Assembly: GCA_018382125.1 (NCBI GenBank)
Contig: JAGZQO010000005.1
Coordinates: 11,195-75,194 of the forward strand
DNA: 64,000 bases
DNA from: Collinsella sp.
Lineage (GTDB): Bacteria; Actinomycetota; Coriobacteriia; Coriobacteriales; Coriobacteriaceae
Reading direction: 5' to 3'
Part shown: positions 32,201 through 51,627 of the stretch, one piece after another
Layout: every line of letters begins with the position of its first letter
How positions within the stretch are numbered: the stretch's first letter is position 1
Notes under the pieces: generated by a model
Database searches by the model: none
What the model was told of the DNA's origin: nothing
What the model saw: only the letters and a program-made list of their open reading frames with translations
Position numbers and translations under genes: made by a program

Positions 32201-33601
32201 TTAGGCCTGCTCGGAAGCCTTGGGCTCATCCTTGTACAGGACAAACGAGATGGCAAAGGACACGACCGCGGCGACCGCAAACATGATCGCGTACTGCACG
32301 GGCTGTGCCAGGCACAGCAGGATACCGAAGATGCCGGTAACGCCGGTGCCGGAAGCGGCAAGCGAGGTGAGAGCGCAGACCAGGGCACCGCAACCGCCGC
32401 CGATGCAGCCGGCGATGAAAGGCTTAAAGAAGCGCAGGTTCACACCAAAGATGGCCGGCTCGGTAATGCCCATGAAGGCGGACAGAGCGGAAGGAAGCGC
32501 CAGGCCCTTGATCTTGGCATCGCGGGTCTTAAAGGCAACGGCAAGTGCGGCGCCACCCTAGGCGATATTGGCAGCGCTGGCGATGGGCAGCCAATAGGTC
32601 ACGCCGTACTGGGCGAGCTGGCCCAGGTCGATGGCGGTGTACATCTGGTGGATACCGGTAACGACCGTGGGGGCATAGAACAGGCCGACGATAAAGGAAC
32701 CGATGCCGAAGGGCAGGGTCAGCAGGGTCTGGATCAGACCGAGGATGGCGTTCTCGGCCCAGACAAAGATGGGGCCGACGGCAACAAGAGTCACGAGCAC
32801 GGTCACGAACACCGAGACAAGCGGAGTCACAAAGAGATCGAACATCTCGGGAACGATCTTGTGCAGGCGCTTCTCGAGGAAGGCGAGAATGGCACAGGCG
32901 ATGACGATGGGGATCACATGACCCTGATAGCCGACCCACTCAAAGCTGTACACGCCGGGGATGACGTTGACCATGGTCTGCACGCCCTCGGAGGCAACCG
33001 TATAGGCGCTCTGCAGCGAGGAGTTGATGAATGCACCACCGACGACGGCGCCCAGGTACGGGTTGGCGCCAAAGGCCTTAGCCGCGGAGTAACCGATCAG
33101 GATCTGCAGAATGCCAAAGGACGTGCCCGAGACCAGGTCGGCAATCTTATAAATAAAGTTATTGGTGTCGAGCGCGATAAAGCCGTTGGAGGCCATAAAG
33201 TTGAGGGCGCTCATAATGCCCAGCAGCAGGCCCGAAGCCACGATGGCGGGGATGATGGGGACAAAGACGTCGCCGAGCACCTTAATGGCACGCATAAAGA
33301 TGTTCTGCTGCTGCGCCGCTGCCTCCTTGACCTCGGCCTTGGTGGCAGCCTCGACGCCGCTGAGCGCAATGAACTCGTCGTAGACCTTGTTGACGGTGCC
33401 AGTGCCAAAAATAATCTGGAGCTGGCCCTGGGCCTCAAAGACGCCCTTGGCGCCGTCGATATTCTCGAGGGCCTCCTTGTCGACCTTGGCGTTATCGGCA
33501 ATCACAAGGCGCAGACGCGTGGCGCAGTGTGCGGCCGAAACAACGTTGCCGGCGCCACCGATGTTGTCGAGCACCTCTTGGGCTGATTTGCGGTAGTCCA
33601 T
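32201..33601 (-). pseudogene. scrA: Sucrose-type PTS EIIBC interrupted by in-frame TAG at 32558-32560
   Basis: HCATRLR (EIIB) and GITEPAIFGVNL (EIIC); the two track ORFs are in the same frame and read ASAANIA*GGAALAVAFK across the stop (CAG->TAG likely). Confidence 0.88.
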
Positions 33602-33657
33602 GACTTCCCTTTCCTCCAACGGGCGCATCTGCACCCGGCCATCTTTGACACTTACAC

Positions 33658-34795: not shown

Positions 34796-34859
34796 CCATG
34801 ATACCCGTGACGGCGCTTCGGATAAATCAATATCACCCAGGTCGAGCAAACGTCAGCGA

Positions 34860-34959
34860 GCGGGCAGCTGCCGTGGCGAGGTGCCGCGAAAGAGGAGCGA
34901 AGCGTACTTCATGTACGCGAGCGACGGTTTGAGCGGCAGATCGCCCGGCAGATGCCCGC
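34860..34959. ncRNA. Long bulged hairpin, candidate structured RNA or dispersed repeat (resembles skipping-rope-type motif)
   Basis: Nested stems gcgggca/tgcccgc, tgccg/cggca, ggcga/tcgcc, tgccgc/gcggca, gcgtac/gtacgc, separated by GA-containing internal loops; family assignment from memory only. Confidence 0.45.
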
Positions 34960-35003
34960 GCAGCGTCGAGCGGTCCGGCGTTCGTTAGAACACCGGAACA
35001 TAG

Positions 35004-35669
35004 TTATCCATGATACTCGCCGTTGTACTGGATGAGCGTCAGGTCTTTCACGCCGTCGAGCGCGCGAATGGCGTCGGCATAGGGCATATCCGCACCGTCA
35101 GAGAACACCTCGACGGCCATCTCGACCTTGTCGCCGCGCATCGTCTTGGATTTGACGGAAAACTTGGTGCGCCCAAACGCGCGCACGATATCGTCGCCGG
35201 TGGTCTGGCCCGTGTAGTGGATGACCATCATGTACACGCGCGACTTGTCCTGGTGGCTCGCAAAGCCGGCGATCATCACCACGATCACCACCGCCGTGAG
35301 CCCCACGAGCGCGTACATGCCGGCGCCGGCCGTAATGCCCGTGGTAATGGCCCAAAACAGATACAGCAGGTCGAGCGGGTCCTTGACCGCCGTACGGTAG
35401 CGGACGATGGACAAAGCGCCCACCATACCGAGCGAGATGACCACGTTCGTCGAGATCGCAAGCGTAACCATGCAGGTAAGCACGCACATACCCACGAGCG
35501 TCACGGCAAAGCTGCGCGAATACACCACGCCGGTAAAAAAGCGCTTGTACACGCAATAGATCAGGATGCCCATGGCGAGCGCAACGAGCAGCGACAGGCC
35601 GATCTTGGCAGGGTCGACCTGACCAAACGCCTCCAAGACGGAGTTCTTAAAAAAGTCCCTGGTGCTCAT
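35004..35669 (-). CDS. DUF4956-family membrane protein (TM domain + C-terminal ACT-like domain)
   Basis: SLGMVGALSIVRYRTAVKDP motif, several TM helices. Confidence 0.88.
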   Translation of the reverse strand: MSTRDFFKNSVLEAFGQVDPAKIGLSLLVALAMGILIYCVYKRFFTGVVYSRSFAVTLVGMCVLTCMVTLAISTNVVISLGMVGALSIVRYRTAVKDPLDLLYLFWAITTGITAGAGMYALVGLTAVVIVVMIAGFASHQDKSRVYMMVIHYTGQTTGDDIVRAFGRTKFSVKSKTMRGDKVEMAVEVFSDGADMPYADAIRALDGVKDLTLIQYNGEYHG

Positions 35670-35672
35670 GGT

Positions 35673-36464
35673 CTAAATATCCCCTCGGTTCTCAAAATCC
35701 GATTCCCAGTAGTTAAAACCGCGCAGGTAGGCGGTCTTTTCGTAACACAGGCAGTACTTGGAGACCGCCGTAAGCTCGGCCGCGTCAGGCGGCACCATAT
35801 CGCGCACCAGCTGCGGGCAAAACTCCGTAAACTTGACCTCCATCACCAGCTTGCCGGGCTCCAAGACCGGCAACGCGGGCAGTGTCGCATCAAAGATGTC
35901 AAAGCTCCCCACCGCGGCACGCACGTTACTATCAAAGGTAATGCGCACGGTGCCCTCGTCCATCACCCACGGCTCGCGCTCGTAGTCCACGATGGTCCGC
36001 GGGCGCATCATGTTGCAGATGCACTCGATGTAGAACTCGCGGCACAGCTGGTGGGGACTTCTCAACAAAAAGTCGTACTCGCCGGCCAGGATGCGCTCAA
36101 ACTCGTCGCGCGTAAGCGGCGCGTCCTCCTTGTAGATCCAGCTGCCGTACTTCTTTTTACGCTCGAGCTTAATCACCTTATCGCTGCCGTTATAGATGCG
36201 CACGCGATACTTATTTCGCATGAGAATGCCGGCATCTTTTTCCTCGTAAGCAGAGTTGCTGTAGTCATCGAAGTACAGGCTGCGAATGGTGTAACCGCCC
36301 GAGCGCGCATGCTTGTCCAGCTTAAACACCGGCGACATGCGGCAGGCAAGCGCAGCGTGCTCACCCTCGTTGATGAGATATTTGAGCTCGTGGCGGTAGC
36401 GCTCCTGCGTGCTGCGCTCGGGCGGAGCCGCCAAGCGCTCAAGCAGTGCGCTAGCCCTCCTCAT
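35673..36464 (-). CDS. VTC/CYTH polyphosphate-polymerase-domain protein
   Basis: RHELKY, IRSLYFD, KYRVRIY, LERK, YEREP, RITFD, MEVKF, SKY motifs. Confidence 0.9.
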   Translation of the reverse strand: MRRASALLERLAAPPERSTQERYRHELKYLINEGEHAALACRMSPVFKLDKHARSGGYTIRSLYFDDYSNSAYEEKDAGILMRNKYRVRIYNGSDKVIKLERKKKYGSWIYKEDAPLTRDEFERILAGEYDFLLRSPHQLCREFYIECICNMMRPRTIVDYEREPWVMDEGTVRITFDSNVRAAVGSFDIFDATLPALPVLEPGKLVMEVKFTEFCPQLVRDMVPPDAAELTAVSKYCLCYEKTAYLRGFNYWESDFENRGDI

Positions 36465-38220
36465 ACGTATCCTCCACGACCTTACCGCCGTCCTGCACGT
36501 AAAAGCACTTCATGCCGTACTGCTTGCCATCGTCGGTCACATAGTAGTCAAACGCATCCTGCGTATAGCCGTCTGAGTTGGTGGCGCGCACGCGTACAAA
36601 ATACTGGCCGGCATCGGGTGCATCGCAGGTCACCTCGGGCAGCAGCACGTCCTCGGCCCTAAAAAGCACGTCGCTTATGACATAGTCGTGCGCCAGCTCC
36701 ACGGTATAGCGAATGTCACGCGCCTTAAAGTCGTAGGACGCATCCCAGTTAATGCGCAGCTTACCGTTATCGATCTGCGGCACGCCAATGTAGAACGGCA
36801 TGGGCTTTTTATAGCTCTCGCGAAAGCTCTTGTAGTTCTCCTCGATCTCGAAGGGAATCGCCGCGGCAATCTGCTCGTATTCGTCCTTGGTGACAGGCAG
36901 ATTGTCGATATCGGGCGAAGCAAAGACCAGCGATTCGGTAACCTCGCGATAATGTTTGATCATCTTGCTCAGGCGCGCCTCGGTCATATACGAGCGCAGG
37001 TCCTTTACGGCGCGGTCGAGCTCGCTGCGGAACGATTTGCTACGCAGTGCACGATTGAATAGCACGTTGCCCCAGTAGTTGCTTACGCCGCGCTCCCAGC
37101 TCGCATAGTCCGAAAACCCCTTCAGGCCCAGCTCAAGCTTACGCAGCATGCCGTCGTTGTCCCAATCCAAAAAGTACCAGGTATTTGAGTTGAGCGGGCT
37201 GTACAGATAGCAGTTGCGGTTCTGCTTATCGCAGTTGCCCGTCAGGATCTGAAACGCCATCCAATAGACCAGGTTCTCAGTATCGAAGTAGGTGTCGAGC
37301 ACATCGTCGATCTTTTGCGTATCGTCGTTGAGCGCATCGAGCATCTCGATTAACTTGGTATGGTCCGAATCGCCCTTAATCTCGAGCATGCCCTCAAACG
37401 CCGTCTGGTTATAGTCGGGGTCATCTGTGAGCTTAATAGTGTCCTCAAAGCGATGGAAATCGAAACTGTTCACCTTATAGAGATGCCCGCTCTTATCCAG
37501 ACCGTGGGCCTTGAGCGCCGTCTTGTTGAGCTGCTCGACCTGCGTAAACAGTCCGTAGTCCTCAAAGGTGTCGTTAGATTTTTCGGTCTGGTCGCACACC
37601 CACAAGTGTACAAACTGCGTGCGCAGGCCCATCATCTGGGGAATGCCGCGGATCAGATCGTAAGCCATCTTGTTACGAAAGCGCATGCCCTCGCCCATGT
37701 GCTTGTTAAGCGCAATCGCATGTTGCTGGCGCCACGTGCCCTTGCCCTTTTTGAGCTCCACCTTGTAGTTCTTTTGCGTATAGGTACTCGACGTCTGACC
37801 GCGCACCTGCACCGTGGCGTTGGGCGCCTTCTCGCCATAGCCCACCTCGCCAGCAACGGGACCCTTATCATCGCCAGGCTGCAGCAGGCCCATAACCTGA
37901 TAGCGCGTCACGCCCATGTCGGCATAGTCATACACCGAGTAGGTATTGATCTCGGCCCAGCTATGATCGGTATTCTCGGAGCTGTTGCCGCGAGAGACCG
38001 TCAGGTACATACATACGATACCCGAGTCGTCGTAGACCTCGTACAGCTCATCCTTGTCGCGAAGATGCTTGGTCTCGCTAGACGCATCGGCCTTTTTAAT
38101 CTTGCCTTGCTTCTTGGTCTTTTTTGTCGAGGATTCGTCCTGCGAAGAGCAGCCCGAAAGCAGCAATGTGCCGGCAGCCGCCTCAATCAAGCGGCGACGC
38201 GATATCATCCTATCGGTCAT
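36451..38220 (-). CDS. CotH-family kinase, predicted Tat-exported lipoprotein with C-terminal Fn3-like domain
   Basis: SRRRLI twin-arginine and LSGC lipobox; VRGQTS, NYKVEL, YGLFTQVEQ, GNCD..N, WDND CotH motifs. Confidence 0.85.
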   Translation of the reverse strand: MTDRMISRRRLIEAAAGTLLLSGCSSQDESSTKKTKKQGKIKKADASSETKHLRDKDELYEVYDDSGIVCMYLTVSRGNSSENTDHSWAEINTYSVYDYADMGVTRYQVMGLLQPGDDKGPVAGEVGYGEKAPNATVQVRGQTSSTYTQKNYKVELKKGKGTWRQQHAIALNKHMGEGMRFRNKMAYDLIRGIPQMMGLRTQFVHLWVCDQTEKSNDTFEDYGLFTQVEQLNKTALKAHGLDKSGHLYKVNSFDFHRFEDTIKLTDDPDYNQTAFEGMLEIKGDSDHTKLIEMLDALNDDTQKIDDVLDTYFDTENLVYWMAFQILTGNCDKQNRNCYLYSPLNSNTWYFLDWDNDGMLRKLELGLKGFSDYASWERGVSNYWGNVLFNRALRSKSFRSELDRAVKDLRSYMTEARLSKMIKHYREVTESLVFASPDIDNLPVTKDEYEQIAAAIPFEIEENYKSFRESYKKPMPFYIGVPQIDNGKLRINWDASYDFKARDIRYTVELAHDYVISDVLFRAEDVLLPEVTCDAPDAGQYFVRVRATNSDGYTQDAFDYYVTDDGKQYGMKCFYVQDGGKVVEDTYEEG

Positions 38221-39755
38221 CAGGACCTCCCCAACGATTGCGATACACGCGAACCACCGTGCGCTCAAACGCACCATGCGGCTCGCCCTCTAGACGCAGT
38301 TCCTCGTAGCGCTGTTCGGCACGGTCAAGCAAGCGGCCCAGCTCCGTAAAGCGCCCCTTCTTGTCGGTCGCCACAATGGGCTGCTGGCTCAGAATACGAT
38401 ACGGCAAGTTGGCGGTATAGGTATCGAGCCGCATTAGGGCCACAACAAAAAATACCGCCGCGCCGAGCAAAAAGCCAAAGCCATAAAACTGCTGCGGAAA
38501 GAACAGCGAGACGACGGTCGCCAGCCCCGCCACGCCCGCGAACAGCCCGGAGGCAAGCACGGCGCCCTTGTAGTCGGTAAAGTACAGCAAGATCAGCAGA
38601 ATCGTATTGCCCACGGCATACAGGCCATAGCCCACGCACAGCGTGCGAAAATACCCGTGCATAAGGTTGTTAAAGCCCAGTGGCAGGGCCGAGAGCACCG
38701 TGGTCTCGAGCGAAATGACCGCCGCGGTCACAAACAGCTGCTTGAGCGCACAAAAGCGCAGTTCGCTGTTGAGCGTGGAGAGCATCTCCTCCTCGGCCAC
38801 CACAATATCGCCTACCACGCCGCCGTCATTGAACAGGCTGTAGTAGTCACGGTAGCGCGGATAGAAGTTGACCTCGACCGAGACCACAAAGTTGACGGTC
38901 GTGACCAGGATCGTCAAAAACGCGATGAGCGCCGGCACATCGTAGTAGGGCGCACCATAAAACAAGCCCTTGACCTGCACGCCAATGGGACCGGCCCAAA
39001 TAATCACCAGGTGCGCAAAGAGTCCCAGATTGGTTAACAGGCCCGTGAGCGCCAGCGGCATAAACTGATCGAGCCACCGCAAAAAGGGCCAGGGGCTGCG
39101 GTCGCTCTGAGGAAAATACCGGTACAGCAGCACCACGTCCCAGGCGAGCATGACGCCGTAGCCCAGAGCAATTGACGCCAACAGGCCCTCGACCGGCGGC
39201 AGTCCCAGCGCCAGCGCGGCCAGGGCGCACAGGCACGCCACGCCAATGGCAGCCGCAAAGCTGCACAGGATGCCGCGGTAGTCCTTGATGGCCGTGAGGT
39301 AACTCATGCCGTTCCAGTTGACGATCATAATGTTGAACAGCCACAGGCACAGCAGCCCCCTGCAGCAGCGTGGCACCCGAGAACAGCAAAAAGACGCCGT
39401 AGAGCACCGTGCCCGCAACGAGCATGACAGCATTGGAGCCCCAAAACGAAGGCAGAATCTCGTCCTCGCGCTCGGCAAAAAGCATGTCGGCCAAAAAGCG
39501 CGTGACCGGCATAGAGAAAAAACTCGTGAGCGTGAGCGACGCCAGCAGCGTATAGGTCACCATGCACACCAGCAGATCTTGGTTGGCACGGCCCACACCC
39601 CACAGACCGCACAGCACCAAGATACCCACCTGGAGCAGCACGCCCAGCAGCATGGGGCCCGTGCACACAATGCCAGCGTAGCCATAGGCGCGCATCGTGG
39701 CAAACAGACCCTTGCGCCTAAACAGGCGCTTGAGCTCAAAACCGATTCCGGCCAC
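38210..39755 (-). pseudogene. pelG: Pel exopolysaccharide transporter PelG, +1 frameshift in G5 run at 39356-39360
   Basis: N-terminus MAGIGFELKRLF in one frame, C-terminal half (YDVPALIAFL, VEVNFYPRY) in another; removing one G restores ...LLQGLLCLWLF... Confidence 0.85.
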
Positions 39756-39758
39756 CGG

Positions 39759-41186
39759 CTACTCCCCCTCTCTGGGCAGGTCAAACGCTTGCGCCGTCTC
39801 GTCGTACAGCGCGCGATAGTTGGCGAGCATCTGCTCGTGCAAGAAGTACGTGGCAACGCGACGCTGGCCGCGCTCCCCCATCTCAATGCGACGAGCGCGG
39901 CTTGTGCACATGCGTTCCATGGCATCGGCCAAGCCCTTGCGATACATAGGCGGCGTCACAAAACCCGCCACGCCAAAATCATCGCCCGGTGCGCCTTCGA
40001 GCAGCTCGCGGCAGCAGCCCACCTCGGTCGTCACGCAGGGACGGCGCGCGGCAAGCGACTCCAGCACGCTGAGCGGCTGGCCCTCGGAGATGCTCGTCAA
40101 AATGGTAAAGTCGAGCTTTTCCATGTACTCGACCACGTTGACGCGGCCGGTAAAGATCAGGTCGCGCACGCCCAGGGTTTCGACCAGCGCGTGGCACTCG
40201 GCGCCGTACTCCTCGTCGTCCACGCCGCCCATGATGTGCAGGCGCACCTTGGGCAGGCGCTCGTGCAGCTCAAAGAAGGCATAAATCATGGTCTTGACAT
40301 CCTTGATGGGCGCCAGGCGCACCACCGCGCCAATGTCCACCCAGCCGTCATCTTGCTTTAAGGGAATATCCTCAAAGCGGTCGAACTGGATGCCGTTGGG
40401 GATGACTAGGCATTTACCCGCATCGCAGCCCATATCGATCTGCGTCTTGCGGGCGTTATGGAACAAACTGGTCACGCGGAAGGCGCGGCGGTAGATCTCC
40501 TCCGAAAGCAGGTAGAAAAAGCGAATCCAGCGGTCCTTAAACGACGGCACCACCCAATCGGCGCGAATGATCTCTTCCTCGCGCTCGCGGGTATAGATGC
40601 CATGCTCGGTCAGCAGCACCGGCGCATGGTGAACGCTTGAGCCCAGGCAGGCGAGCAGGCCACCGTAGCCGGTCGAGATGGCATGGTACACATCGGCCAC
40701 CGGCACCTCGCTGCCCAACAGGTAGAGCACGGGCAGCAACATGGAGCGCATGGTGTGGAATGCATCGGCAAAGGGCGTATAGGGATACTCGGCCAGGCAC
40801 ACGTCGCGAAAGATATCCATAAACGTGCGGCTCTGCAAAAACGAGAGCGGATGCACGCGACGGCGGTGGAAGATATCAAATAACACGTCCCAGTCCGGAT
40901 TGGAGAGCGACACCAGACGGCGTAGCGCCTCGCGCTCACGGTCGTTAAAACTGGCTTCGTGCTGCTCGCCCGAAAGCCGCAGGGCATCGTCTAGGAACAC
41001 CTCGTGCACCTCGACCACGTTGCCGGGCAGCTCGTAGACAAACTTGCCGCGGTCGGCAGCATGCGCGCCGATCACCCACAGCACAAACTCGTGCTCGGGC
41101 ATGGCCTGGATATAGCCATGCATCCAGGTAGATACGCCGCCGTGCACATAGGGGTAGCAACCCTCGAGTACCAAGCAGATTCTCAT
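39759..41186 (-). CDS. pelF: GT4 glycosyltransferase PelF
   Basis: EGCYPYVHGGVSTW, TEHGIYTRER, SISEGQPLSVLE (EX7E). Confidence 0.93.
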   Translation of the reverse strand: MRICLVLEGCYPYVHGGVSTWMHGYIQAMPEHEFVLWVIGAHAADRGKFVYELPGNVVEVHEVFLDDALRLSGEQHEASFNDREREALRRLVSLSNPDWDVLFDIFHRRRVHPLSFLQSRTFMDIFRDVCLAEYPYTPFADAFHTMRSMLLPVLYLLGSEVPVADVYHAISTGYGGLLACLGSSVHHAPVLLTEHGIYTREREEEIIRADWVVPSFKDRWIRFFYLLSEEIYRRAFRVTSLFHNARKTQIDMGCDAGKCLVIPNGIQFDRFEDIPLKQDDGWVDIGAVVRLAPIKDVKTMIYAFFELHERLPKVRLHIMGGVDDEEYGAECHALVETLGVRDLIFTGRVNVVEYMEKLDFTILTSISEGQPLSVLESLAARRPCVTTEVGCCRELLEGAPGDDFGVAGFVTPPMYRKGLADAMERMCTSRARRIEMGERGQRRVATYFLHEQMLANYRALYDETAQAFDLPREGE

Positions 41187-43063
41187 TTATCGCCACCCTC
41201 CTTGCGCTCGATCGTCACGGTCTTATCATTTGCCTTGAGCAGATACAGATTGCCCGTAAGGTGCGTCAGTTCGCCACCCGTGACTGCACCCGGCTCGCCA
41301 TTATTGGCGCGGAACATGAGCCACGCCTCGTCGTGGAAATTGCCCAGACTGAGCGTCCAGGCATCCGCACTGGTATTCACGCTCACCGTCACGGACGAAA
41401 AACGCTGGATGGCACCGGAGCACTCCGAGCCGGTCTGGCGGCGCAGGTCGGGCGCAGACTTGGTAAGCCAGTCCAGGTAGTCGGTCAGGCCGCCCTTGTA
41501 GACTTCCCAGCCCTCCTTGGCGCCGCGATCGGGATCCAGCAGGTCATCGGGATGCATAAAGTGAGTACTCACGTAGTGCATGTTGAGCTCGGACACCGCG
41601 GCCAGACGCATATAGGTGTCATCGACCATGCCGCCCGAGACGATACGCGGCTGCTCCACAATGCCATCGCTCGCCACGCCAAACTCCTGCACGTAGGGCA
41701 GGTCGGTTCCGTCCTCAAAGTACGTGCTTGCAATGGTCTTAATGCGCGGCACATCCTCGCCAATAATCTTGCGGGCGCGGGCCGAAAGGATATTCGACGG
41801 CGGCACGTAGACCGAGCCGTGCGCGTTGGGCAGTACCTCGTCCTGGAAGGCGATAAGCTCGTTGAGCGATGCAACAAGCGTCTCTTTGTTCTTCCATGTC
41901 TTGTAGTCGTACAGCGTGCCATAGTCGGTATCCCAGAGCGCCAGCGGCTGATGGTTGTAGCCGTGAAAGCCCAGCTCTCCGCCCATCTGCAGCAGCATGC
42001 CGCCAAAATAGCGGAACTGCGTGGTATCGGGTTGGCGCGCGGGCTCGGTCTGGTTGACCGCGTCCTCGTAGTTTTCGATCATCACGCCGGTAAAGCGAAC
42101 GCCATATTTTTGCGCGAGCTTTTGCAGATCGGGCCACCAGACCTTGGCATAAAAGTCGGCGACAGAAAGCCCGTAGTCGCGCTTGATGTAGGTGCCGTCG
42201 CCCGAGGGCACGGGGCTGGGAAAGTCGTCCAGGTAGAAAACGGCGCTGTTGATGACCGGATAGGCCGTGACATCGCCCAGCAGGCTGACCGCCGCGGCGT
42301 AAAAGCCGCGCATGACCTTGTCATAGATACCGATATTGCATACCACGGTGCGCCCGTTACCGCAGGCATTCGACCAAATGAGCGGGGCACCCGCATCACC
42401 GGTCTTAGCCCACACACGAGCCGTCTCGCGCAGCGAAACCGAAAGTGACGAATCAAAGGGGTCCGAGAGCTCGTAGCGCTCTCCCCCGCCCAGCATAAAG
42501 TCCTCGCTCGGCACAATGCTTTCGGCTTTTACATAGTCATATCCGGCCGATTCGATCCCAAGCTTGGAAGCAATAGCCTGCAGGCAGTTCGAGTTATCTG
42601 GCGTCATGCCCAGCATGAGTGAGCCGCCCACACTCACCCAACTCATCAGATCGGTCAGATGCGTACCCAGTCCGTCAAGCGAGGGCATAAGCACAATCAC
42701 GCGATCAAACGACGTGAGCGATGGGATCGCGTCCGCACCGTCGGTGGCAATATCAACATCGCGATGGGCGATCTTCATGTCGAGCAGGATCTGGTCGAAC
42801 TGTTCCTTTACGTCCTCGACGCCAGCTTGATCGGAATCGGTAATGACCAGGCACGTGGGCTTTTGGCCAAAGATTGCCGAGGAGGCCGGCACCGCATCGT
42901 TGGCGGCCAGCATCCCCAGCTTATGCTGGCCCGCACTGTACTGCACGCCGGCACGCTCCACCAGCAGCACAGCGGCCATGACAATAAAGACCGCCCACAC
43001 CACGAGGAGTCCCATCCAACGAAAGCGCCCTGCACGGTCGCGGATATGTTGCGCCACGCTCAT
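41183..43063 (-). CDS. DUF2194 / PelA-deacetylase-like polysaccharide deacetylase, N-terminal TM anchor
   Basis: LDDFPSP, HGYNH, YVPPSN, HFMHPDD CE4-type motifs; position between pelE and pelF. Confidence 0.85.
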   Translation of the reverse strand: MSVAQHIRDRAGRFRWMGLLVVWAVFIVMAAVLLVERAGVQYSAGQHKLGMLAANDAVPASSAIFGQKPTCLVITDSDQAGVEDVKEQFDQILLDMKIAHRDVDIATDGADAIPSLTSFDRVIVLMPSLDGLGTHLTDLMSWVSVGGSLMLGMTPDNSNCLQAIASKLGIESAGYDYVKAESIVPSEDFMLGGGERYELSDPFDSSLSVSLRETARVWAKTGDAGAPLIWSNACGNGRTVVCNIGIYDKVMRGFYAAAVSLLGDVTAYPVINSAVFYLDDFPSPVPSGDGTYIKRDYGLSVADFYAKVWWPDLQKLAQKYGVRFTGVMIENYEDAVNQTEPARQPDTTQFRYFGGMLLQMGGELGFHGYNHQPLALWDTDYGTLYDYKTWKNKETLVASLNELIAFQDEVLPNAHGSVYVPPSNILSARARKIIGEDVPRIKTIASTYFEDGTDLPYVQEFGVASDGIVEQPRIVSGGMVDDTYMRLAAVSELNMHYVSTHFMHPDDLLDPDRGAKEGWEVYKGGLTDYLDWLTKSAPDLRRQTGSECSGAIQRFSSVTVSVNTSADAWTLSLGNFHDEAWLMFRANNGEPGAVTGGELTHLTGNLYLLKANDKTVTIERKEGGDK

Positions 43064-43965
43064 CTGGCCTCCTCCCCGTCGCGCCAAAACGCCAACTTTT
43101 CGCGGTTGTCGGCGCTCAAATACACATGTTGCTTGTCAATCGCATCGATCACACGGTGGACCTCGTCACCGTCGCGGCGCATCACGGCCAGGCGCAGGCA
43201 AAGCATCCAAACCTCCTGCTCCTCGGGCACGTCGAGCACCAGCTGGTCGATCACGGCCTGCGCCTCGTCGATCTGTCCGACATCGGCCAGCGCCGTCGCA
43301 TATCGAATGCGCAGCTCAAAGGTGTCCTCGCGCTCGCAGCGACGCGCAAGCAGGCGCGCGTACTGTTGACGCTGAATCTGAGCCACACGCCCCTCGGCCA
43401 AGCCCGAGCCCAAGTATTCACCAAGAAAATCACAGTATTCGTTGAGGTTTTGCGCGCTCGGATCCGTCTTAAAGGCACGCTCCAACTGCTGCAGTTTAAG
43501 GTCGGACTCCTTGGAGATCTGCGCCACCGCCGTCGCGGCATAGTGCGCCACCTCAGCGTCGTCGTTAAGCTTAGCCGCCTGCAGCTGCGCCAGGTACGCG
43601 TCGGGCTCCTCGGTGAGCATGGAGAGCATTAGGCGGCGCCGGTATGCCGGGTCGTTGACGATGAGCGCCTCCTCGAGCGGCACTACGCCTGCATCGTCCT
43701 CACCACTCGGTACCGACATACTACGATGCAGGTCGTCGTTGAAGCGCAGCGACTCCAGCGCAGACTCTTTCAGCCCCTCGCCAAACACCGCGCTGCGGAC
43801 CGATAGCAGAACCACCAGCAACGGGCCCCACAGCGGCACCAGCACTATCACGGCCAGCATGTGCCCGCGCACCGGCAGCAGGCCCAGCTTCATGAGCGTC
43901 CACAGCATCAGGCAAACCAGCGTATGAATCAGCAGCAAGACGGCAGCAACGACAAGCGAGATCAA
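43060..43965 (-). CDS. PelE-like protein (2 TM + helical/TPR region)
   Basis: Two N-terminal TMs, VVPLEEAL, DAEVAHYAA motif, C-terminal TPR-like repeat; operon position. Confidence 0.75.
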   Translation of the reverse strand: MISLVVAAVLLLIHTLVCLMLWTLMKLGLLPVRGHMLAVIVLVPLWGPLLVVLLSVRSAVFGEGLKESALESLRFNDDLHRSMSVPSGEDDAGVVPLEEALIVNDPAYRRRLMLSMLTEEPDAYLAQLQAAKLNDDAEVAHYAATAVAQISKESDLKLQQLERAFKTDPSAQNLNEYCDFLGEYLGSGLAEGRVAQIQRQQYARLLARRCEREDTFELRIRYATALADVGQIDEAQAVIDQLVLDVPEEQEVWMLCLRLAVMRRDGDEVHRVIDAIDKQHVYLSADNREKLAFWRDGEEAR

Positions 43966-46100
43966 GCGGCACCCCCCTCACCGTCACCGGTGTAAGAGAT
44001 GTGCTGCAGCAACGCCACGATGTCCTCGCCATCGACGGGCTCCACCGCAATCCGCTTTGCGCTCAGGCGCTCGCGGATAATGGGCAGATCGCACGCCTTT
44101 GCCTGGCGCATAAGCAGGTAGAGCACGTCGTCGTCGACCAAGCCCGCCGCGTCGCTCTCGCGGATTGCCGACCCAATTGCGCCCACCAGCTCGCCGACAG
44201 GCTCCATGCCCGGTACCACGCGCAGGAGCAAAAAACTCCCCATCTTGCTATCTGCCAGCGCCTGCTCCGCCGCGAGCTCTTGGCCAAAGGCAGCCTGCTT
44301 GAGCACGCAAGTGCCGTCAACGCAGCGTTTATCCTGCGCCACCGCCTCATAGTCAAAGGCACGGCCCAGCGCGCTTTCGACCAGCCCGCACAAGATGCGG
44401 AACAGGTTTTGATAATAGAGGGTCATTTGGTTTTCGGCCGCACTACGCACAAAGATCAACACGGCGGGTGCCCCGTCGCGCTCGATCGTGTATCCAAACA
44501 TGGGAAGCCCCGGCGTCAGCTCGCGGTTCACCCATAGGTTCGAACGACCCCCGTCGCCCAAAAGAGGTGCAAGCTGCTCGAGCGTGAGCGAGCGTGCGGC
44601 ATCTTCGGCAATCGCGGGACTTGCTGCCACCAGGCGTGCAAATGCCCCGCCCGAAACATGGTAGATCGCCACCGAATCGTTCTCGAGGATCTCGCCCAAA
44701 AGCTCGCAGCACTTGCGATAGATGTCGCGCGGGTTGAGTACGTCGAGCTCCTGCGTCACGGCAAAGATCTTGCCAAAGCTGTCGTGGCGACCCACGATCT
44801 GGCGCCTGTACGCGCGCTTGTCCTCGATCGCGTCGTGGTAGAGCTGCGTAAGGAACGTATTGCGGTTGCGCACGAGCTCGTTTTGATCGCGCTCCGCCCT
44901 AATGGCTTCGCTGTTGCGCAGCTGAACATAGCCGCACACGGCACCCACAACAAAGTACGCAATAAACGGCAGCCAGTTGGACGGCTCGTAGAACAGGCCC
45001 TGGAAGGTATAGCCGTACTGAGTAAAGTAGCTCGCGGCCAAACCCACCGACGCCAGCAGCGCCGCAATCAGGCCAAAGTCCAATCCATACAGCGTGCCGA
45101 TCAGCACCACGTAGAGCAGGCGATAATCGAGCACGTTGAGCTGGGCCGATTGGGAGAAAAGATGCTCAAGCACCTCGAACAGGACCCAGGCAACGCCCGT
45201 CTCTAGGCATTTAATAGGCAGCGTGCGCATTTGGATGCGGTCGATGGCGGCGCGCAAGGGGTTGACCTTCTTTGCGCGGCCAGCATCCCAACGCGCTTGA
45301 ATGGTCGAAAGATCGCGCAGCAAGTCGTAGCGCTGAAACCAGCCATAGCGCACGCGAGCGACGTCGCTGGCGGGCAGGGCATAGCCGGCAGAATCGCCAT
45401 AGGCAGCTGAAAGCCCTGGGAACAGCGCCTGAAGAGCCTCGCCCACTTCACCCGCCGTGTGATGGAAGGCATCGGCAACGTCGAGCGTCTCAAAGTTACC
45501 ATCCCAGCTGTCGAAGATACGGCGCACCAGCACCGCAAGCTCCTCGGCATACAGCAGGGGAAACGCCGCATCCTGCGCGCCCTGCAGAGCGACCGATCCA
45601 GTTGAGCACGCATCGAACAACGGCACCAAAAACGGATCTTCCAGCGCGGCGGAGGCAGTGTACAGGAAGGGCACGCGCAGGATCTTGGTCTGAACGCCAT
45701 CGCGAGCAGCGTAGTAGCGGCACAGGTCGTTGGCTGCGTGCGCGATAATGCCCTTGCCCGTTCGTCCCGCGGCATCGGCGGCACCCTCGGCACCCGCGGG
45801 CCCCGCTACATACAGCAGTTGTACGCGGCGACCCGCGCACGCACGAAAGACCGAACGCAGCAGCTCGATATCGCCCACGATATCGGTATGCGGGGTAAGG
45901 TAATTGGATAGGTAGACCACGCGGTCGAACTCGTAGGCCTGATCCAGGTGTTGCAGAAGCTCTTTCCACGAGGCATGGGGCGATGACTCGTCGCGGCGCG
46001 CTTCCGCGGCAGCGACGACCTGGACATGGTCCCCGGGGAACGCCTTGGCACAAAAGTCATCGTCAACATATGCGGTGTTGCCAACAACCAGCACCTCCAT
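43962..46100 (-). CDS. Gram-positive PelD-like protein (degenerate SDR + TM + GAF + degenerate GGDEF with RxxD)
   Basis: Rossmann-like N-terminus, 3-4 TMs, GAF-like region, C-terminal IRESD I-site; first gene of the pel operon. Confidence 0.8.
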   Translation of the reverse strand: MEVLVVGNTAYVDDDFCAKAFPGDHVQVVAAAEARRDESSPHASWKELLQHLDQAYEFDRVVYLSNYLTPHTDIVGDIELLRSVFRACAGRRVQLLYVAGPAGAEGAADAAGRTGKGIIAHAANDLCRYYAARDGVQTKILRVPFLYTASAALEDPFLVPLFDACSTGSVALQGAQDAAFPLLYAEELAVLVRRIFDSWDGNFETLDVADAFHHTAGEVGEALQALFPGLSAAYGDSAGYALPASDVARVRYGWFQRYDLLRDLSTIQARWDAGRAKKVNPLRAAIDRIQMRTLPIKCLETGVAWVLFEVLEHLFSQSAQLNVLDYRLLYVVLIGTLYGLDFGLIAALLASVGLAASYFTQYGYTFQGLFYEPSNWLPFIAYFVVGAVCGYVQLRNSEAIRAERDQNELVRNRNTFLTQLYHDAIEDKRAYRRQIVGRHDSFGKIFAVTQELDVLNPRDIYRKCCELLGEILENDSVAIYHVSGGAFARLVAASPAIAEDAARSLTLEQLAPLLGDGGRSNLWVNRELTPGLPMFGYTIERDGAPAVLIFVRSAAENQMTLYYQNLFRILCGLVESALGRAFDYEAVAQDKRCVDGTCVLKQAAFGQELAAEQALADSKMGSFLLLRVVPGMEPVGELVGAIGSAIRESDAAGLVDDDVLYLLMRQAKACDLPIIRERLSAKRIAVEPVDGEDIVALLQHISYTGDGEGGAA

Positions 46101-46255: not shown

Positions 46256-46642
46256 CTATTCGCTCTGAAATGGCACATCGCAATCTGCTGACAGCTCTGC
46301 AGGGAGAATGGCAGGCAATGTACATTGCTCTCGCACAGAATAGTTGGATGGAAGAAACGGCAGTTCTTTGGAATAGCTGACGATAACCTGCGGAACGATC
46401 TTAATGCCCAGAGCAAGTTCGAACTTTGCAATCGTCTTTAGAGTCATATTAGGTTGAGAATTCAAGAGCTTAGAAAGCGACTGAAGGCTTATGCCCATAC
46501 GATTTGCCAGCTCACTTTTGCTCAATCCCAAACGTTTCATTTCGCGATGAACAATAAACTCAATATCTAGTGCATGTTCACAAGCGCGCGTTTCGCTACT
46601 TTCTGTTTCGGCATAAAAATCAGATAAATCTACTTTATTCAT
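46256..46642 (-). CDS. XRE/HigA-like HTH protein (antitoxin-like)
   Basis: LSKSELANRMGISLQSLSKLLN..NMTLKTIAKFELAL HTH_3 pattern. Confidence 0.8.
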   Translation of the reverse strand: MNKVDLSDFYAETESSETRACEHALDIEFIVHREMKRLGLSKSELANRMGISLQSLSKLLNSQPNMTLKTIAKFELALGIKIVPQVIVSYSKELPFLPSNYSVREQCTLPAILPAELSADCDVPFQSE

Positions 46643-46856
46643 TGTATTCTCCGTTTCAGAAACCAGGCATAAAAGTCAGCGCCCAGGCTCCAGAAGCTGA
46701 CGCGCTATTCTGGCCGATCATTGTTTGAGCGGTTAATTTCCGCTCATGGTCTGACAACATTTTCTGGAATTGAGAGTTATCGGGAGAAGCCGTCAATTCC
46801 CAAAACGGTCGACCCTTGAGGTCTCTATATTCGACAAGTTCATATCCTTCTGCCAA
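46639..46856 (-). pseudogene. Probable decayed toxin gene of a toxin-first TA pair
   Basis: GGAGGT RBS + TTG start gives MAEGYELVEYRDLKGRPFWEL...; a second frame (RVSFWSLGADFYAWFLKRRIQ*) ends in ATGA overlap with the HTH gene. Confidence 0.4.
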
Positions 46857-46875
46857 AGGGCACCTCCCATTTCTA

Positions 46876-46905
46876 GATGAACTTAACTTATAGGTTAAGT
46901 TCATC
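46876..46905. promoter_or_regulatory. 30-bp palindromic operator upstream of the TA-like pair
   Basis: GATGAACTTAAC-TTATAG-GTTAAGTTCATC (perfect 12-bp arms). Confidence 0.75.
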
Positions 46906-47770
46906 CATTTAAATACATATAACGAGGTCCAGACAAGATTCCTCTGCCCCAATCGATAAACAAACCAGTCGAGCTTATGCAAAATCCGGAAGTGTGTGGC
47001 AAATTCTAGACACGTCAACCACACTGGATAGTGACAAAGTTTCTACCTGCGAGTTCTTTTCATAAAAAGGACGATGTGCTCGAGGGTTCCGAAATTTGCC
47101 GCATACTTCCGTCGGTCATTTCCGGAAGTGCGGTAAAAAACCGAGATCGACAGACCAGACCCCTGTTTTAGCTTTCCGCGACCTGCGGTTTTGTTGCCGA
47201 AATTCGGTTTATGCTCGGAGGTTTCCGATTTTTTCCCCGCACTTCCGAAAAGCACGCTTAAACCGCGCGTCCCGAAGCGGAAAACCGCCGGATATTTGTT
47301 TCTCCCCAAATGAGATCCTTGTTTCGCCTGGCCGAATCTTACATCCAAACAAAAAAAGAGGACCGACGCATCAGCCCTCTTCAGGTGTCGCCCGAAGGCT
47401 TCCAGCGCAATTGATTTAATTCTAATCGATATCACTTGTTTGACCACGATCACGTCAACCAGTAGAAGCCGCCCATGCTCGATCATTCCATTGCCGGGAT
47501 GGTGCTTGGCCAGTACGTCACACATTGCATACATGAAAAAAGGGCAACACTCTCAGTTTGAAAGCGTCACCCTTAAAGTTCCCAAAGAGCTTTTGTACTG
47601 CGGGAAGATACTCTACACCATCTTCCCTTGATTGGCAGGTCGAAACAGACACCATTGTGATTTCAAGCAGAAAGCGTTATATTAAGAATGCATTTGCACG
47701 TGGTGTTCGCACTATACGCTCAGATGCCATAGTTTACAAAGATGGCCTTCTTCATAGACGCTAGGTGGGA

Positions 47771-49366
47771 TTACTCACTAGTAGCCGATATGTCGAAGGC
47801 CTTCTTGTACTTAAGGAAATCATACATTCTAATAAGCCGTTTCAGCTCGCTATTACCGTGGATTATCTTACGATCATCCGTGATGAGCGCCCTCAGATAC
47901 TCGAGCAACTCATTTAAATCGAGCTCATCCTCCTCAAGTAAAACTAACTTTTTAAATGCTTCCTCAAAGCCTTCGTTAGCTATAACAGACTTAACCGAGT
48001 ATCTAATTCCCGAAAGATGATAGCTACCTTTTGCCTTTCGTAGGCTGTTGTTTAGAAAAGCATCTAAATCCTTCTTCTCATCTATTTCCTTTAGCATCCT
48101 TGGATTAAGAACTTCCCCTGAATACGCGCTTAAATACTTATACATGGGCAAACCACCCGAGTTAGAAGCAAGCAGCGCAGGAAGATATTCCTCGACGGCA
48201 AGTTTGGGAGCGACATGTTCATCATCAAACACGACATCGCGATATAAAAGCTCGGCTTTGACCATATGACCGTGGCCCAAAGATGCATTTGCGACACCGA
48301 TGCCCAGCACAAGATGCTGTCCCTCCGGAAGTCTCTCGAGGTCGCTAAAACTCGCTTCGACTACCAGAGAATCATTTGGCTCGCCCTTATCTGCCAGGGC
48401 GTAGATACTCCTGCGCAACTCACGAATGATCCTGGGCGAGAAGGAGCATTTGGAATGTCCAATTGCTTCATACACTGCGCCAAAATCATTCGTCCTAATC
48501 GCGGTCATGCTTATCTCGCCAATACCCGGAAATGTAATCGAATGTGTCGAGGTTGCGTTTTCGCCCCTAGTTAGGAAAATAAAACGCTCTTTGAGCAATA
48601 CAAGATTATTTGAACCGAGGCAGCGCGAAATCGACATGAGGATAGCTTGGATATCGGGGTCGTTAAGGGAATAGCCGATAAAAATAATTGGGTATTCCAT
48701 AAAAATAGTTAGCAACTTGGCTGCCAAGTAATCCTGGGTTTCGGCGAGTTTTGCGTAATCTGCCTCCTCAAGAACCATAGATTCAGGATTATCCATAGAC
48801 CCGTGGATCTTATAGATTTCACCCATTTCAAAAGTTCTGTGAAAGACAAGATCGTCCTGGCCTACAAAAACTTTAAACTCGGGAAACAGCGACTCCAGTA
48901 GACAGTCATAGTTGGTTGTAATGACTCCAGAAATACGCCGCCTGCCGACCTCTCTCAAGATATCAAGTTCATGCGTCATATGGTCAGGTTTGAACGAGGA
49001 TAACCTCTCGGCCGCCATAATCTTTAAAACAGATTTGCGCTGACGAATGTCCTCTGCATGATCGTCTCTAAAAGAAGCGAAGCGAGGGTCCTCAAGAACA
49101 GCTATGCGCATATCCTTATCAAGCATCGTCGCGGCAGAGGGCAAAGCACCATAATCAGGATTATCTGGACAGCGAGCAAGGTAGGAATCGAGTCGAAAAG
49201 GATCATCAGAAAGACGGGAGCAGAGGTGCCTTAACAAGCCGTCCCAATCGTCGGTCCCCATATATCTACGGGAAAACCCCGAGCCAACGAATAAATAGGG
49301 GCTACGGCCCACCCCATTTATCAGACGGACAACGCTGTCTACAATGTCATCTCTTCCGACTTCCAT
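47771..49366 (-). CDS. SIR2-like (SIR2_2) domain protein, putative defence NADase
   Basis: LFVGSGFS, ITTNYD, KIHGS, FIGYSLND motifs; about 230-aa uncharacterised C-terminal region. Confidence 0.88.
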   Translation of the reverse strand: MEVGRDDIVDSVVRLINGVGRSPYLFVGSGFSRRYMGTDDWDGLLRHLCSRLSDDPFRLDSYLARCPDNPDYGALPSAATMLDKDMRIAVLEDPRFASFRDDHAEDIRQRKSVLKIMAAERLSSFKPDHMTHELDILREVGRRRISGVITTNYDCLLESLFPEFKVFVGQDDLVFHRTFEMGEIYKIHGSMDNPESMVLEEADYAKLAETQDYLAAKLLTIFMEYPIIFIGYSLNDPDIQAILMSISRCLGSNNLVLLKERFIFLTRGENATSTHSITFPGIGEISMTAIRTNDFGAVYEAIGHSKCSFSPRIIRELRRSIYALADKGEPNDSLVVEASFSDLERLPEGQHLVLGIGVANASLGHGHMVKAELLYRDVVFDDEHVAPKLAVEEYLPALLASNSGGLPMYKYLSAYSGEVLNPRMLKEIDEKKDLDAFLNNSLRKAKGSYHLSGIRYSVKSVIANEGFEEAFKKLVLLEEDELDLNELLEYLRALITDDRKIIHGNSELKRLIRMYDFLKYKKAFDISATSE

Positions 49367-49401
49367 CTAACGCCTCCAAACAAGTCTACTTCCATAAGTA
49401 T

Positions 49402-49415
49402 AGAACATATGTTTG
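49402..49415. promoter_or_regulatory. LexA/SOS-box-like site in the SIR2 gene promoter
   Basis: AGAACATATGTTTG (GAAC-N4-GTTY) directly abutting a minus-strand TATACT -10 box. Confidence 0.55.
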
Positions 49416-49814
49416 ATTATTGCTAGAATTGCAAGACTTCATCGAAGACAAAAGCTGCTCGACAATTGAAAATTCGAACCGCACAGGTGACCCAATATTC
49501 AGCAGTGCTCCGACGAGCAAATATTCATTTCGCATCTCAGACAATCTAGCACAGCGGCATCAGTTAGAACGCCATGACTCTCTAGGAGTTCGATAAGTTG
49601 AGCGAAAGTCTAAAAATCTATCGCCAAAGTAACTCCTAAAATCAAAGAGCCGTTGCCGGCAACAACCGAACAACGACCCTCCTTTGTCATCGCCTCACTT
49701 AGAGTCAACGATGACTGTATCACTATCGACATAGTAACCTGTTTTCGTCGCTATTGCGGAGCATGCAGAACTACATTCAATGTCCGGGCAAATCGATTGG
49801 CCTGATTCGGCACG

Positions 49815-50786
49815 TCAGTCATTATTCTCCCCATCAACAAAATCAGCAAAGGTCAGCTGTTCACATCTTTTCATCGGACGGTAATCTCTAACTTTAGTTA
49901 TATGGCATGCGGCGGTTCGGACTTTTTGCGTCCTCAAATTAATGACCTCTTTAATGGTCATATCGACACGCATTAGGTCGCCACTATTTAAACGATACTC
50001 ACCATCTCGCACGCGTTCGAGAAAATCACGGTCGTCTATTTGAACCTTATTGTATGTTCGTTGCTCGTCCTCGTAGCCCGACTCAAATGTATATCCGGAA
50101 ACATCTCCACCGTAGGAACCAAATAACGGTCGAACCCAGATATTGTGGGACGAATACTCAACCGTCTCTTCTTGCGTTGCCTTTAAAGCTTCTTCTTTAT
50201 AGCTGTCAAAATAAGTCGCCTCGCTTGAAGAAAAAGAAATAGCATCCTCTGAAGCCTTACTACCGGCAATCTTAATCTCAATCTCCCTCGAAGGCCTCTT
50301 GAAAGATTTCATCGGACCAGTGATGACCTTAGAAAATTTCTCAGCGATTTCTGGGGACTGGACTAGCGCGTGGATCTCAACAGGAACAACGACTGCGTCC
50401 GAGCCCTCTCCATATACGAAAGTTCCATTGTCAGTTGGCTTATATTTAGAGATATGTCCTTTAACTTTTTTAATTATGTGCGCTATAGCAAATAGAACCT
50501 CCACAAGACCGCCGGCATTATTAATTGCAGATATAGCGTCACTGTTTAACGCGTCAATCAATCCGGGCACACAATGGATCACGAATTCCGTAATAAAAGA
50601 GCCTTCTTTAAATGGGCGCACTTTTATAGACGTATTTTCTAAGGTGCCCGACTCTTTTGCGACCTCTTTTATCAGTCCGTCAAATTGGCTTAGGAACTTA
50701 GAAAGGTCCTTGGCGTCCAGGCCTTCTTCGGGATCTACATCGACAAAGCGATATACGAGCGTTTGATTTTTTGTAGAAGTGTCCAT
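49815..50786 (-). CDS. Hypothetical protein (N-terminal KEGSF motif, C-terminal OB-fold-like beta domain)
   Basis: 323-aa ORF with GAGG RBS; fold assignment is inference from residue pattern. Confidence 0.7.
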   Translation of the reverse strand: MDTSTKNQTLVYRFVDVDPEEGLDAKDLSKFLSQFDGLIKEVAKESGTLENTSIKVRPFKEGSFITEFVIHCVPGLIDALNSDAISAINNAGGLVEVLFAIAHIIKKVKGHISKYKPTDNGTFVYGEGSDAVVVPVEIHALVQSPEIAEKFSKVITGPMKSFKRPSREIEIKIAGSKASEDAISFSSSEATYFDSYKEEALKATQEETVEYSSHNIWVRPLFGSYGGDVSGYTFESGYEDEQRTYNKVQIDDRDFLERVRDGEYRLNSGDLMRVDMTIKEVINLRTQKVRTAACHITKVRDYRPMKRCEQLTFADFVDGENND

Positions 50787-50818
50787 GTTGTCCTCATACC
50801 CTTATAAGATCATGGGTC

Positions 50819-51466
50819 CTATTTCCTGCGACCGAAGCGTTTTATTCGAAAGCGATCGAGCGCAAAATTAAACGAAATAATAAAAACCAACGTAAACGTA
50901 TAGATAACAAATTGATATATTTCAGATACCGAATCAGGCAAATAGACCGCACAGAACGCTTCCGCGACAAGCACGGTAAGAAGCGTACACAACCCGATAA
51001 ATACCATTCTTCCCACATCAATGCGAAAGACATTCCGATACTTCCAAAGCAGAAAAACTGCAACACAATAGATAGCAAGAAGTGAGATTAAGCCTGGCAT
51101 TAGATTCCAACAAAATAGAGAAAGAGCAACGGGAAACGTCCAAATGGCATTCCCCGACGCACCTGAATCCATAAACGTATAGCCTTTATCCCTCATTCCG
51201 TTTCTCTCCACGACAAGCTGGAGATAACTTCTCAATATCCATCCTGAAAATGATGCAAAATAGATAATGAACAATCGGTCGACAGACCACAAGGAATTAT
51301 CCCCAAAGGCAAGCGTAAGGATGCGCGAGGCGACCGGAAGGGCCGCAGAGGTTAAAACCGTGATCAGGACATCGGAGGTTTCAAACCCACCATCCCTGCC
51401 CTCTCGGGACTTGTTAACCATCAATCTCCCAACACAAATAGAAATCAGCATAAGCTCAAGCACCAT
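50819..51466 (-). CDS. Hypothetical multi-pass membrane protein
   Basis: About 6 hydrophobic segments in 215 aa. Confidence 0.65.
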   Translation of the reverse strand: MVLELMLISICVGRLMVNKSREGRDGGFETSDVLITVLTSAALPVASRILTLAFGDNSLWSVDRLFIIYFASFSGWILRSYLQLVVERNGMRDKGYTFMDSGASGNAIWTFPVALSLFCWNLMPGLISLLAIYCVAVFLLWKYRNVFRIDVGRMVFIGLCTLLTVLVAEAFCAVYLPDSVSEIYQFVIYTFTLVFIISFNFALDRFRIKRFGRRK

Positions 51467-51627
51467 ACCACTTCACTGCGTATGGAAAATAGCAGGTCTA
51501 GGCATTGTTAAACACTTAAAGGGTAAAACCTACGGATGAAAGTTAGACAAGAAGAAACCCTTCGATCCTATTTACAGAACGAATAAGACCGAAACGAAAC
51601 CCCGCCCACAGAAAGAAGGCACTCACC

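Follow-up and report, generated by a model that had tools for sequence, protein, structure and literature searches.

The pelDEA(DA)FG operon for the exopolysaccharide Pel has been described in streptococci, clostridia and bifidobacteria as contiguous with three further genes, which encode a CotH protein, a poly-phosphate polymerase and a DUF4956 protein (Whitfield et al. 2020, PMC7112168); the PelG of Collinsella aerofaciens is an entry in the supplementary table of the same study. In Streptococcus intermedius the accessory trio consists of SIR_1594/1593/1592, and these were deleted gene by gene in 2025 (PMC12345266). Loss of DUF4956 or of cotH lowered aggregation in sputum medium by more than 50%; the Pel level went up in the DUF4956 deletion and down in the cotH deletion, and no change was reported for deletion of the polymerase gene. 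A preprint on the same species (10.1101/2024.04.20.589940) stated the likeness of the polymerase to Vtc4, the polymerase of the yeast VTC complex, expected the polyphosphate to remain cytoplasmic, and reported no occurrence of the trio away from pel.

The current work concerns a locus of this type in a stretch of 64,000 nucleotides from the gut bacterium Collinsella sp. (GenBank assembly GCA_018382125.1, contig JAGZQO010000005.1, positions 11,195 to 75,194), which is called the window below. Eight genes on the minus strand run there from 46100 to 35004. They are the same eight genes, in the same order, as the published operon with its trio, and the SDR-like N-terminus of PelD is common to both. 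In contrast to published pel loci, neither a DUF4832 hydrolase gene nor a diguanylate cyclase gene lies downstream, pelG is frameshifted, and CotH carries a twin-arginine lipoprotein signal. The locus is thus already known as the published Gram-positive Pel operon layout and, for that reason, adds little as a discovery. It does touch a real question, namely what serves as phosphoryl donor for exported bacterial kinases and by which route polyphosphate leaves Gram-positive cells. The comparisons reported here support the VTC-domain (polymerase) and DUF4956 genes as one genetic unit, and the module to which they belong is not specific to Pel.

The interpretation preferred for this unit is held tentatively, at somewhat less than an even chance. 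By analogy with the yeast complex, a portable VTC-DUF4956 unit would couple the synthesis of polyphosphate to its outward transfer and serve exported partners. The Vtc4-like cytoplasmic enzyme, as its sequence suggests, would make polyphosphate from adenosine triphosphate (ATP); it would contact the DUF4956 protein, which may carry the product outward, and the exported CotH lipoprotein kinase could draw on this product to phosphorylate surface targets. The module would then be a general envelope device recruited by Pel loci and not required to make Pel. This interpretation starts from what is seen directly: the genes and their packing, the VTC-DUF4956 pairing, the conservation of catalytic residues, and the presence of an export signal.

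The VTC-DUF4956 pair and its genomic contexts

In the window, the VTC-domain gene is located at 35673-36464 (minus strand; 263 amino acids; VTC, E 2e-33) and is followed by the DUF4956 gene at 35004-35669 (minus strand; 221 amino acids; DUF4956, E 1e-11). In the host phylum the two families share one set of 21 among 251 genomes, and the genes adjoin each other in every one of the 21. In the phylum of Streptococcus (S. gordonii) they again share the same genomes, 21 of 151, with 24 of 25 pairs lying within 2.5 kilobases and the last one at contig ends. Either gene may come first. Three of 14 control genomes contain both genes (Bacteroides thetaiotaomicron, Corynebacterium glutamicum and Methanosarcina acetivorans); among the controls, CotH occurs in these three and in Bacillus subtilis. 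These counts leave out a separate scan of 80 loci ranked by likeness, 50 of which were Collinsella-like records.

Natural fusions of the two proteins are rare among the records read. There were 43 longer proteins, of which 17 were scanned and 12 read, and most look like artefacts of frameshifts or deletions. P0288, a single record, is the only clean full-length DUF4956-VTC fusion among those read.

The initial annotation had presented the trio as an extension of the Pel operon. The module is not tied to Pel, and at the level of the families the published restriction of the trio to pel does not hold: the remaining 20 modules in the host-phylum sample gave no pel match in the 10-20 kilobases examined. 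According to annotated records, cotH-polymerase-DUF4956 stands alone in Deinococcus, lies within another glycosyltransferase cluster in Pseudobutyrivibrio, and precedes HEAT and glycosyltransferase genes in Planococcus. A Clostridium perfringens locus with a similar gene order has been tabulated (PMC2879425), and the genes named there as 'tubulin' are probably DUF4956 genes.

The third gene of the module varies. Among the 21 host-phylum modules, 19 adjoin a gene for CotH (13) or for a Cthe_2159 lipoprotein (6); in one of the others CotH lies on another contig, and one has neither. The Cthe_2159 protein is a beta-helix that binds calcium as well as anionic polymers of sugars. In 20 hand-picked regions, mostly streptococcal, Cthe_2159 was seen seven times, CotH twice and neither of them ten times, and one region ended at a contig edge. 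Of 89 streptococcal genomes, 50 contain VTC genes, for the most part with no CotH; the five of these 89 that do encode CotH all have it beside a VTC gene. On alphaproteobacterial plasmids a phytase-like gene stands beside the pair, in one case together with a phosphate transporter.

Other contexts were also recorded. The order on a Nitratireductor plasmid (L136) is DUF4956, polymerase, phosphate transporter and phytase-like gene, an arrangement that may, by analogy, parallel the storage and recovery of phosphate in the yeast vacuole. One bare pair (L203) is followed downstream by genes for an S41 peptidase and for an AMP-binding enzyme, the latter presumably DltA. A metagenome scan for distant contexts gave only two short loci, a phage search for the module gave four unannotated records, and a search of the Atlas returned only DUF4956 clusters.

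The enzyme, the membrane protein and the kinase

The window enzyme and the yeast VTC complex (Vtc4/Vtc3/Vtc1; PDB 3G3Q, 7YTJ, 8I6V) have a homologous tunnel domain. With a profile of 95 sequences, significant matches in PDB were confined to Vtc4, Vtc2 and Vtc3 (E 5e-19); up to E 10, further tunnel enzymes were absent from the matches. Nine residues of Vtc4 have been listed as binding substrate or metal (10.1101/2023.01.27.525886), and all nine are shared with the window enzyme. By hand count on the profile alignment, K28, R87, R89, K103 and Y161 correspond to Vtc4 K200, R264, R266, K281 and Y359, while R163, E209, S235 and K236 correspond to R361, E426, S457 and K458. Seven of the nine are conserved in 69 of 69 sequences, S235 in 68 and Y161 in 60. 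Unlike its yeast counterpart, the window enzyme is a separate and soluble protein, with no signal or membrane segment apparent and without the SPX and membrane parts, and it possesses an extra Glu.

Tunnel enzymes that act as hydrolases are set apart from Vtc4 by four glutamates, the acidic patch (Martinez et al., PMC4641920). The residues R24, K112 and K211, which probably fall on this patch, are basic in 69 of 69 sequences, and the fourth position is acidic. A polymerase activity of the VTC-domain enzyme is favoured as the predicted function. The genome encodes PPK1, and a second enzyme is therefore not needed for cytoplasmic polyphosphate; PPK2 gave no match in the genome. Among VTC-domain proteins at large, about 28 (within P0140-P0263) have N-terminal extensions of 80-390 amino acids with no further Pfam domain, and the six that were read are low in complexity and charged.

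The extra Glu is at position 26, which is acidic in 69 of 69 sequences and which, if the mapping through the ExK motif is correct, is the second-metal Glu of the hydrolases that Vtc4 lacks. The retention of this residue would suit a route in the opposite direction, in which the exported partner captures polyphosphate or a phosphorylated polymer outside, DUF4956 imports it, and the enzyme hydrolyses it or makes ATP. Phytase-like and phosphate-transporter neighbours agree with scavenging of this kind, and sequence alone gives no direction of transport. Such uptake is nevertheless thought quite improbable, because, as in Vtc4, basic residues occupy three of the four positions of the acidic patch, and because the frequent neighbours of the pair, exported kinases and sugar-polymer loci, fit supply better than uptake.

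Outward transfer, as preferred here, would depend on the DUF4956 protein, the model of which consists of five predicted membrane helices plus an ACT domain at the C-terminus. The top Foldseek match of the ACT part is the C-terminal domain of MgtC. The membrane part, modelled with a predicted local distance difference test score of 80, has no Foldseek match at E <1, and its best Z score of 7.6 was obtained with unrelated helical proteins. No Vtc chain is among the listed fold matches of the membrane part, a result that neither shows nor excludes a shared fold. Comparison by hhalign with 20 DUF202 proteins gave 0.7%, DUF202 is absent among the 25 families listed, and no DUF202 gene was found in the genome. 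DUF4956 thus differs from yeast Vtc1 in its five predicted helices, its ACT domain and its lack of detectable Vtc1/DUF202 likeness. The initial annotation had proposed a split VTC-like synthase and translocase; the pairing of the two genes and the Vtc4 catalytic set agree with that proposal. No Vtc1/DUF202 likeness was detected, and the membrane protein is weakly MgtC-like, so that the term 'split VTC' can be used as an analogy only. The pair may work like the yeast VTC complex without necessarily belonging to that family.

The MgtC family and DUF4956 have in common a membrane domain followed by an ACT domain. DUF4956 is distinguished by a position below the Pfam cut-off, by an RxR motif, and by being nearly always paired with a VTC-domain gene. 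The window protein has no match to PF02308 at the curated cut-off, and the best of 69 homologues reaches E 2e-4. In the motif, R92 is found in 68 of 68 members and R or K at position 90 in 68 of 68. R90-x-R92 comes after a glycine-rich helix and lies where the third predicted helix ends, and it was not seen in the one MgtC aligned. By the positive-inside rule the motif probably faces the cytoplasm. The yeast channel has rings of basic residues at its mouth (10.1101/2023.01.27.525886), and the membrane partner of yeast VTC and DUF4956 are alike in possessing conserved basic residues; by this analogy R90-x-R92 may line a pore.

The CotH gene is located at 36451-38220 (minus strand; 589 amino acids; CotH, E 3e-65) and its product ends in an FN3-like C-terminus. 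Translation from the ATG at 38220, which stands behind GGAGG, gives the sequence S-R-R-R-L-I and the lipobox L-S-G-C24, as the initial annotation had noted in describing a twin-arginine signal and lipobox. TatC is encoded in the genome. By eye, the twin-arginine signal was seen only in the CotH homologues of Coriobacteriia, and those of Bacillota have lipoprotein or anchor signals of the usual kind. Genomes with CotH numbered 20 of 251 in the host phylum and 19 of 151 in the Streptococcus phylum. With export signals judged by eye and hydropathy only, the VTC-DUF4956 pair is present in 27 of 30 genomes that have an exported-looking CotH and in one of seven that have only signal-less CotH, where it is unlinked; two genomes are undecided.

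In alignment with the spore-coat CotH of Bacillus (PDB 5JD9), the catalytic Asp, the Asn and the metal Asp fall on D331, N336 and D354 (numbered from ATG 38220), which are invariant in 23 of 23 pel-type proteins. The stacking Tyr and Trp are shared with the Bacillus protein as well; the window CotH differs from it as an exported-type lipoprotein with an FN3-like C-terminus in a non-sporulating host. The adenine sandwich of CotH consists of Tyr142 and Trp245 (review PMC12189002). Tyr142 falls on Y248 in the profile and multiple alignments, and a single-sequence alignment is off by one. A replacement of this Tyr by Lys in module-linked CotH, as read from the single-sequence alignment, was ruled out by the profile and multiple alignments, in which Tyr is invariant.

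The initial annotation had suggested that CotH draws on polyphosphate, or on another phosphoryl donor, supplied outside the membrane. Because the adenine pocket with both stacking residues is kept, direct use by the pel-type CotH is not favoured, and these residues mark it as probably the weakest step of that suggestion. In the interpretation preferred here the link to CotH is also the weakest step; since CotH keeps the adenine pocket, direct transfer from polyphosphate would be the less likely link, and a nucleotide that is supplied at the surface, or recharged there, the more likely one. The same pocket suits a different explanation, in which the tunnel enzyme binds ATP or regenerates it from PPK1-made polyphosphate and DUF4956 passes ATP outward to an ATP-dependent CotH. 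Pel-type CotH keeps the adenine sandwich together with all kinase catalytic residues, the genome encodes PPK1, and the same co-occurrence counts fit. Delivery of ATP is still considered unlikely, as it is not evident what the Cthe_2159 and phytase-like partners would use ATP for and as many module-linked CotH of the lamin-tail type have lost both aromatics while keeping the catalytic Asp and Asn.

This aromatic-less subfamily was seen at loci L116, L117, L119, L120, L164, L184, L185, L192-L195, L198 and L199, and the lamin-tail domain was confirmed in four. Judged from their residues, a donor other than a nucleotide may be more plausible for these proteins than for the pel-type enzyme. Three further loci (L130-L132) encode proteins of 1150-1250 amino acids with two tandem CotH domains, the first of which is catalytically degenerate; the genes adjoin the pair in polysaccharide gene clusters.

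Coupled export or regulation

Several observations, besides the acidic residue at position 26 and the adenine-stacking Y248 and W353, which are kept and invariant in 23 of 23 pel-type CotH, weigh against coupled synthesis and export. A weak likeness to MgtC was obtained for 39 of 69 DUF4956 members at E <=1, with 2e-4 as the best value, and MgtC is described as a regulator and not as a polymer channel (10.1101/2024.04.20.589940). The pairing has exceptions: DUF4956 occurs without VTC in two of 80 loci, VTC without DUF4956 in one of the 20 hand-picked regions, and the pair without a CotH or Cthe_2159 gene in ten of those 20. Three genomes with an exported-looking CotH lack the pair, and the four signal-less actinobacterial CotH all come from one family. 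Moreover, the sampled genomes are related, so that the counts overstate independence and should be taken as a pattern, not as a statistic. In S. intermedius, deletions of DUF4956 and cotH shift Pel in opposite directions, and deletion of the VTC gene has no reported change (PMC12345266); a simple linear pathway does not fit these results.

Much of this would be expected of a regulatory module without transport. The enzyme would then act in the cytoplasm only, by polyphosphate synthesis or triphosphate hydrolysis; DUF4956 would regulate from the membrane, as an MgtC-like protein whose ACT domain senses a ligand, and together with CotH it would tune the output of Pel. The phenotypes of the DUF4956 and cotH deletions, beside a VTC deletion with none reported (PMC12345266), are in line with regulation, as are the MgtC-like membrane part with its ACT domain, the hydrolase-type acidic residue kept in the enzyme, and the existence of bare VTC-DUF4956 pairs without a third gene. 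The expectation of cytoplasmic polyphosphate by the authors of the preprint points the same way (10.1101/2024.04.20.589940). Regulation of this kind leaves unexplained, however, why the pair tracks exported and not signal-less CotH (27/30 versus 1/7), why the RxR motif is present in DUF4956 and absent from the one MgtC aligned, and why the exported partners are interchangeable. It is regarded as rather unlikely, though less so than delivery of ATP or uptake.

Synthesis coupled to export thus remains the preferred interpretation. As for the VTC deletion, a second VTC copy could mask the loss of the gene in S. intermedius; such copies are found in four of five CotH-bearing streptococcal genomes, a count that does not include the S. 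intermedius deletion strain itself. If the pair is indeed a synthase and exporter, bacteria would possess in it a counterpart of the yeast VTC complex in which the membrane protein is a different one. A bolder form of the idea, possible and at the same time more doubtful, is that VTC and DUF4956 form a widespread bacterial machine that makes polyphosphate and threads it across the cytoplasmic membrane by way of a pore derived from MgtC and not related to the yeast channel. It would supply energy and phosphate to the large class of exported CotH kinases, so that surface sugars or proteins could be phosphorylated where ATP is scarce, and Pel loci would be one client among several. According to a 2026 preprint, Bacillus cereus makes extracellular polyphosphate without PPK1 or PPK2 and has no Vtc4 homologue, and therefore the VTC-DUF4956 module would not explain that case. 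The initial annotation had called the coupling uncharacterised. The gene set has in fact been published and its members deleted singly; a test of whether a bacterial VTC-DUF4956 pair makes or exports polyphosphate was not found in literature coverage that leaves out most subscription papers, and to that extent the statement stands.

The pel genes and their surroundings

The eight genes are tightly packed in the open reading frame list, with overlaps of 4, 4, 4, 11 and 14 nucleotides and remaining gaps of 3 nucleotides. Upstream of cotH, VTC and DUF4956, which directly follow pelG, the five pel-type genes are contiguous and co-oriented on the minus strand. The pelD-type gene (43962-46100) encodes 712 amino acids with an SDR-like N-terminus, a membrane region, a C-terminal RxxD-type motif and a DUF4118 match. 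The next genes encode a pelE-type TPR membrane protein (43060-43965; 301 amino acids; TPR match and position), a pelA(DA)-type deacetylase-like protein (41183-43063; 626 amino acids; DUF2194, E 3e-171) and the family 4 glycosyltransferase PelF (39759-41186; 475 amino acids; DUF3492/glycosyltransferase; NF038011, E 1e-95). The frameshifted exporter gene pelG (38210-39755) gives two PF16933 pieces, compared with 514 amino acids in intact relatives. The calls of pelD and pelE rest mainly on position and homology. For pelD these are its place, its homology to the gene at the same place in the Streptococcus gordonii locus L089 and the RxxD-type motif in translation; the SDR matches of its N-terminus are weak (E 0.003), and the Pfam PelD model did not match the protein. 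With pelD assigned in this way, the open reading frames and the Pfam and NCBIfam matches agree with the gene families named in the initial annotation.

Across the genus, many genomes match the DNA of the locus at near full length; elsewhere in the order there are hardly any matches. Contigs from RNA libraries span it, yet they cover most of the genome as well. No consensus promoter was found on the minus strand, and the scan for promoters and terminators gave results at chance level. Directly 3' of the DUF4956 stop codon is a structured intergenic repeat (34838-34999, minus strand) of about 160 nucleotides, which folds strongly (z -5.25) and is dispersed in many copies through the genomes of the genus; it likely ends the transcript.

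One extra G in the G run at 39356-39360, which the initial annotation had missed, shifts the frame of pelG behind codon 133, so that the five pel genes are not all intact in this assembly. The frameshift is present in none of 11 close relatives, one of which (L004) has an in-frame stop instead, and the extra base leaves no trace in four of four public runs of related strains. A search of public runs turned up none from the strain itself (best share 0.33), and for this reason an assembly error and a true mutation are not separable. In S. intermedius, deletion of pelG abolishes Pel and each of the five pel genes is needed (PMC12345266); if the extra base is real, the strain therefore likely makes no Pel.

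Broken copies were counted in 62 Collinsella-like loci, with partial copies excluded. Among fully covered copies, five of 48 are broken for pelG (this one included), five of 54 for cotH, three of 45 for pelA, and one of 45 each for pelF and pelE; none of 55 VTC and none of 58 DUF4956 copies is broken, in a set biased towards intact DUF4956 by the choice of 50 of the 62 loci for DUF4956 likeness. Two loci (L012 and L043) have an identical 7-nucleotide deletion in pelA at codon 476, and in four Collinsella loci (L078, L080-L082) a deletion has removed the operon as far as a truncated VTC gene. The shared deletion and the operon losses suggest recurrent decay of the locus.

Three further observations concern the surroundings. 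Two GGDEF-domain genes elsewhere in the genome (G000:C36:29264-29710 and C44:47712-48140) could supply cyclic di-GMP for PelD. In the window, a sucrose-type phosphotransferase system gene at 32220-33634 encodes 358 amino acids, compared with 466 in L049; no frame-breaking indel is listed for it, and a premature stop is likely. Directly upstream of pelD, at 46256-58400, lies a defence island of low G+C content (44-51%), which contains a helix-turn-helix gene, PDC-S25 (SIR2-like), a PDC-S42-like gene, a PDC-S20-like KAP NTPase gene and a Gabija gajA-gajB pair.

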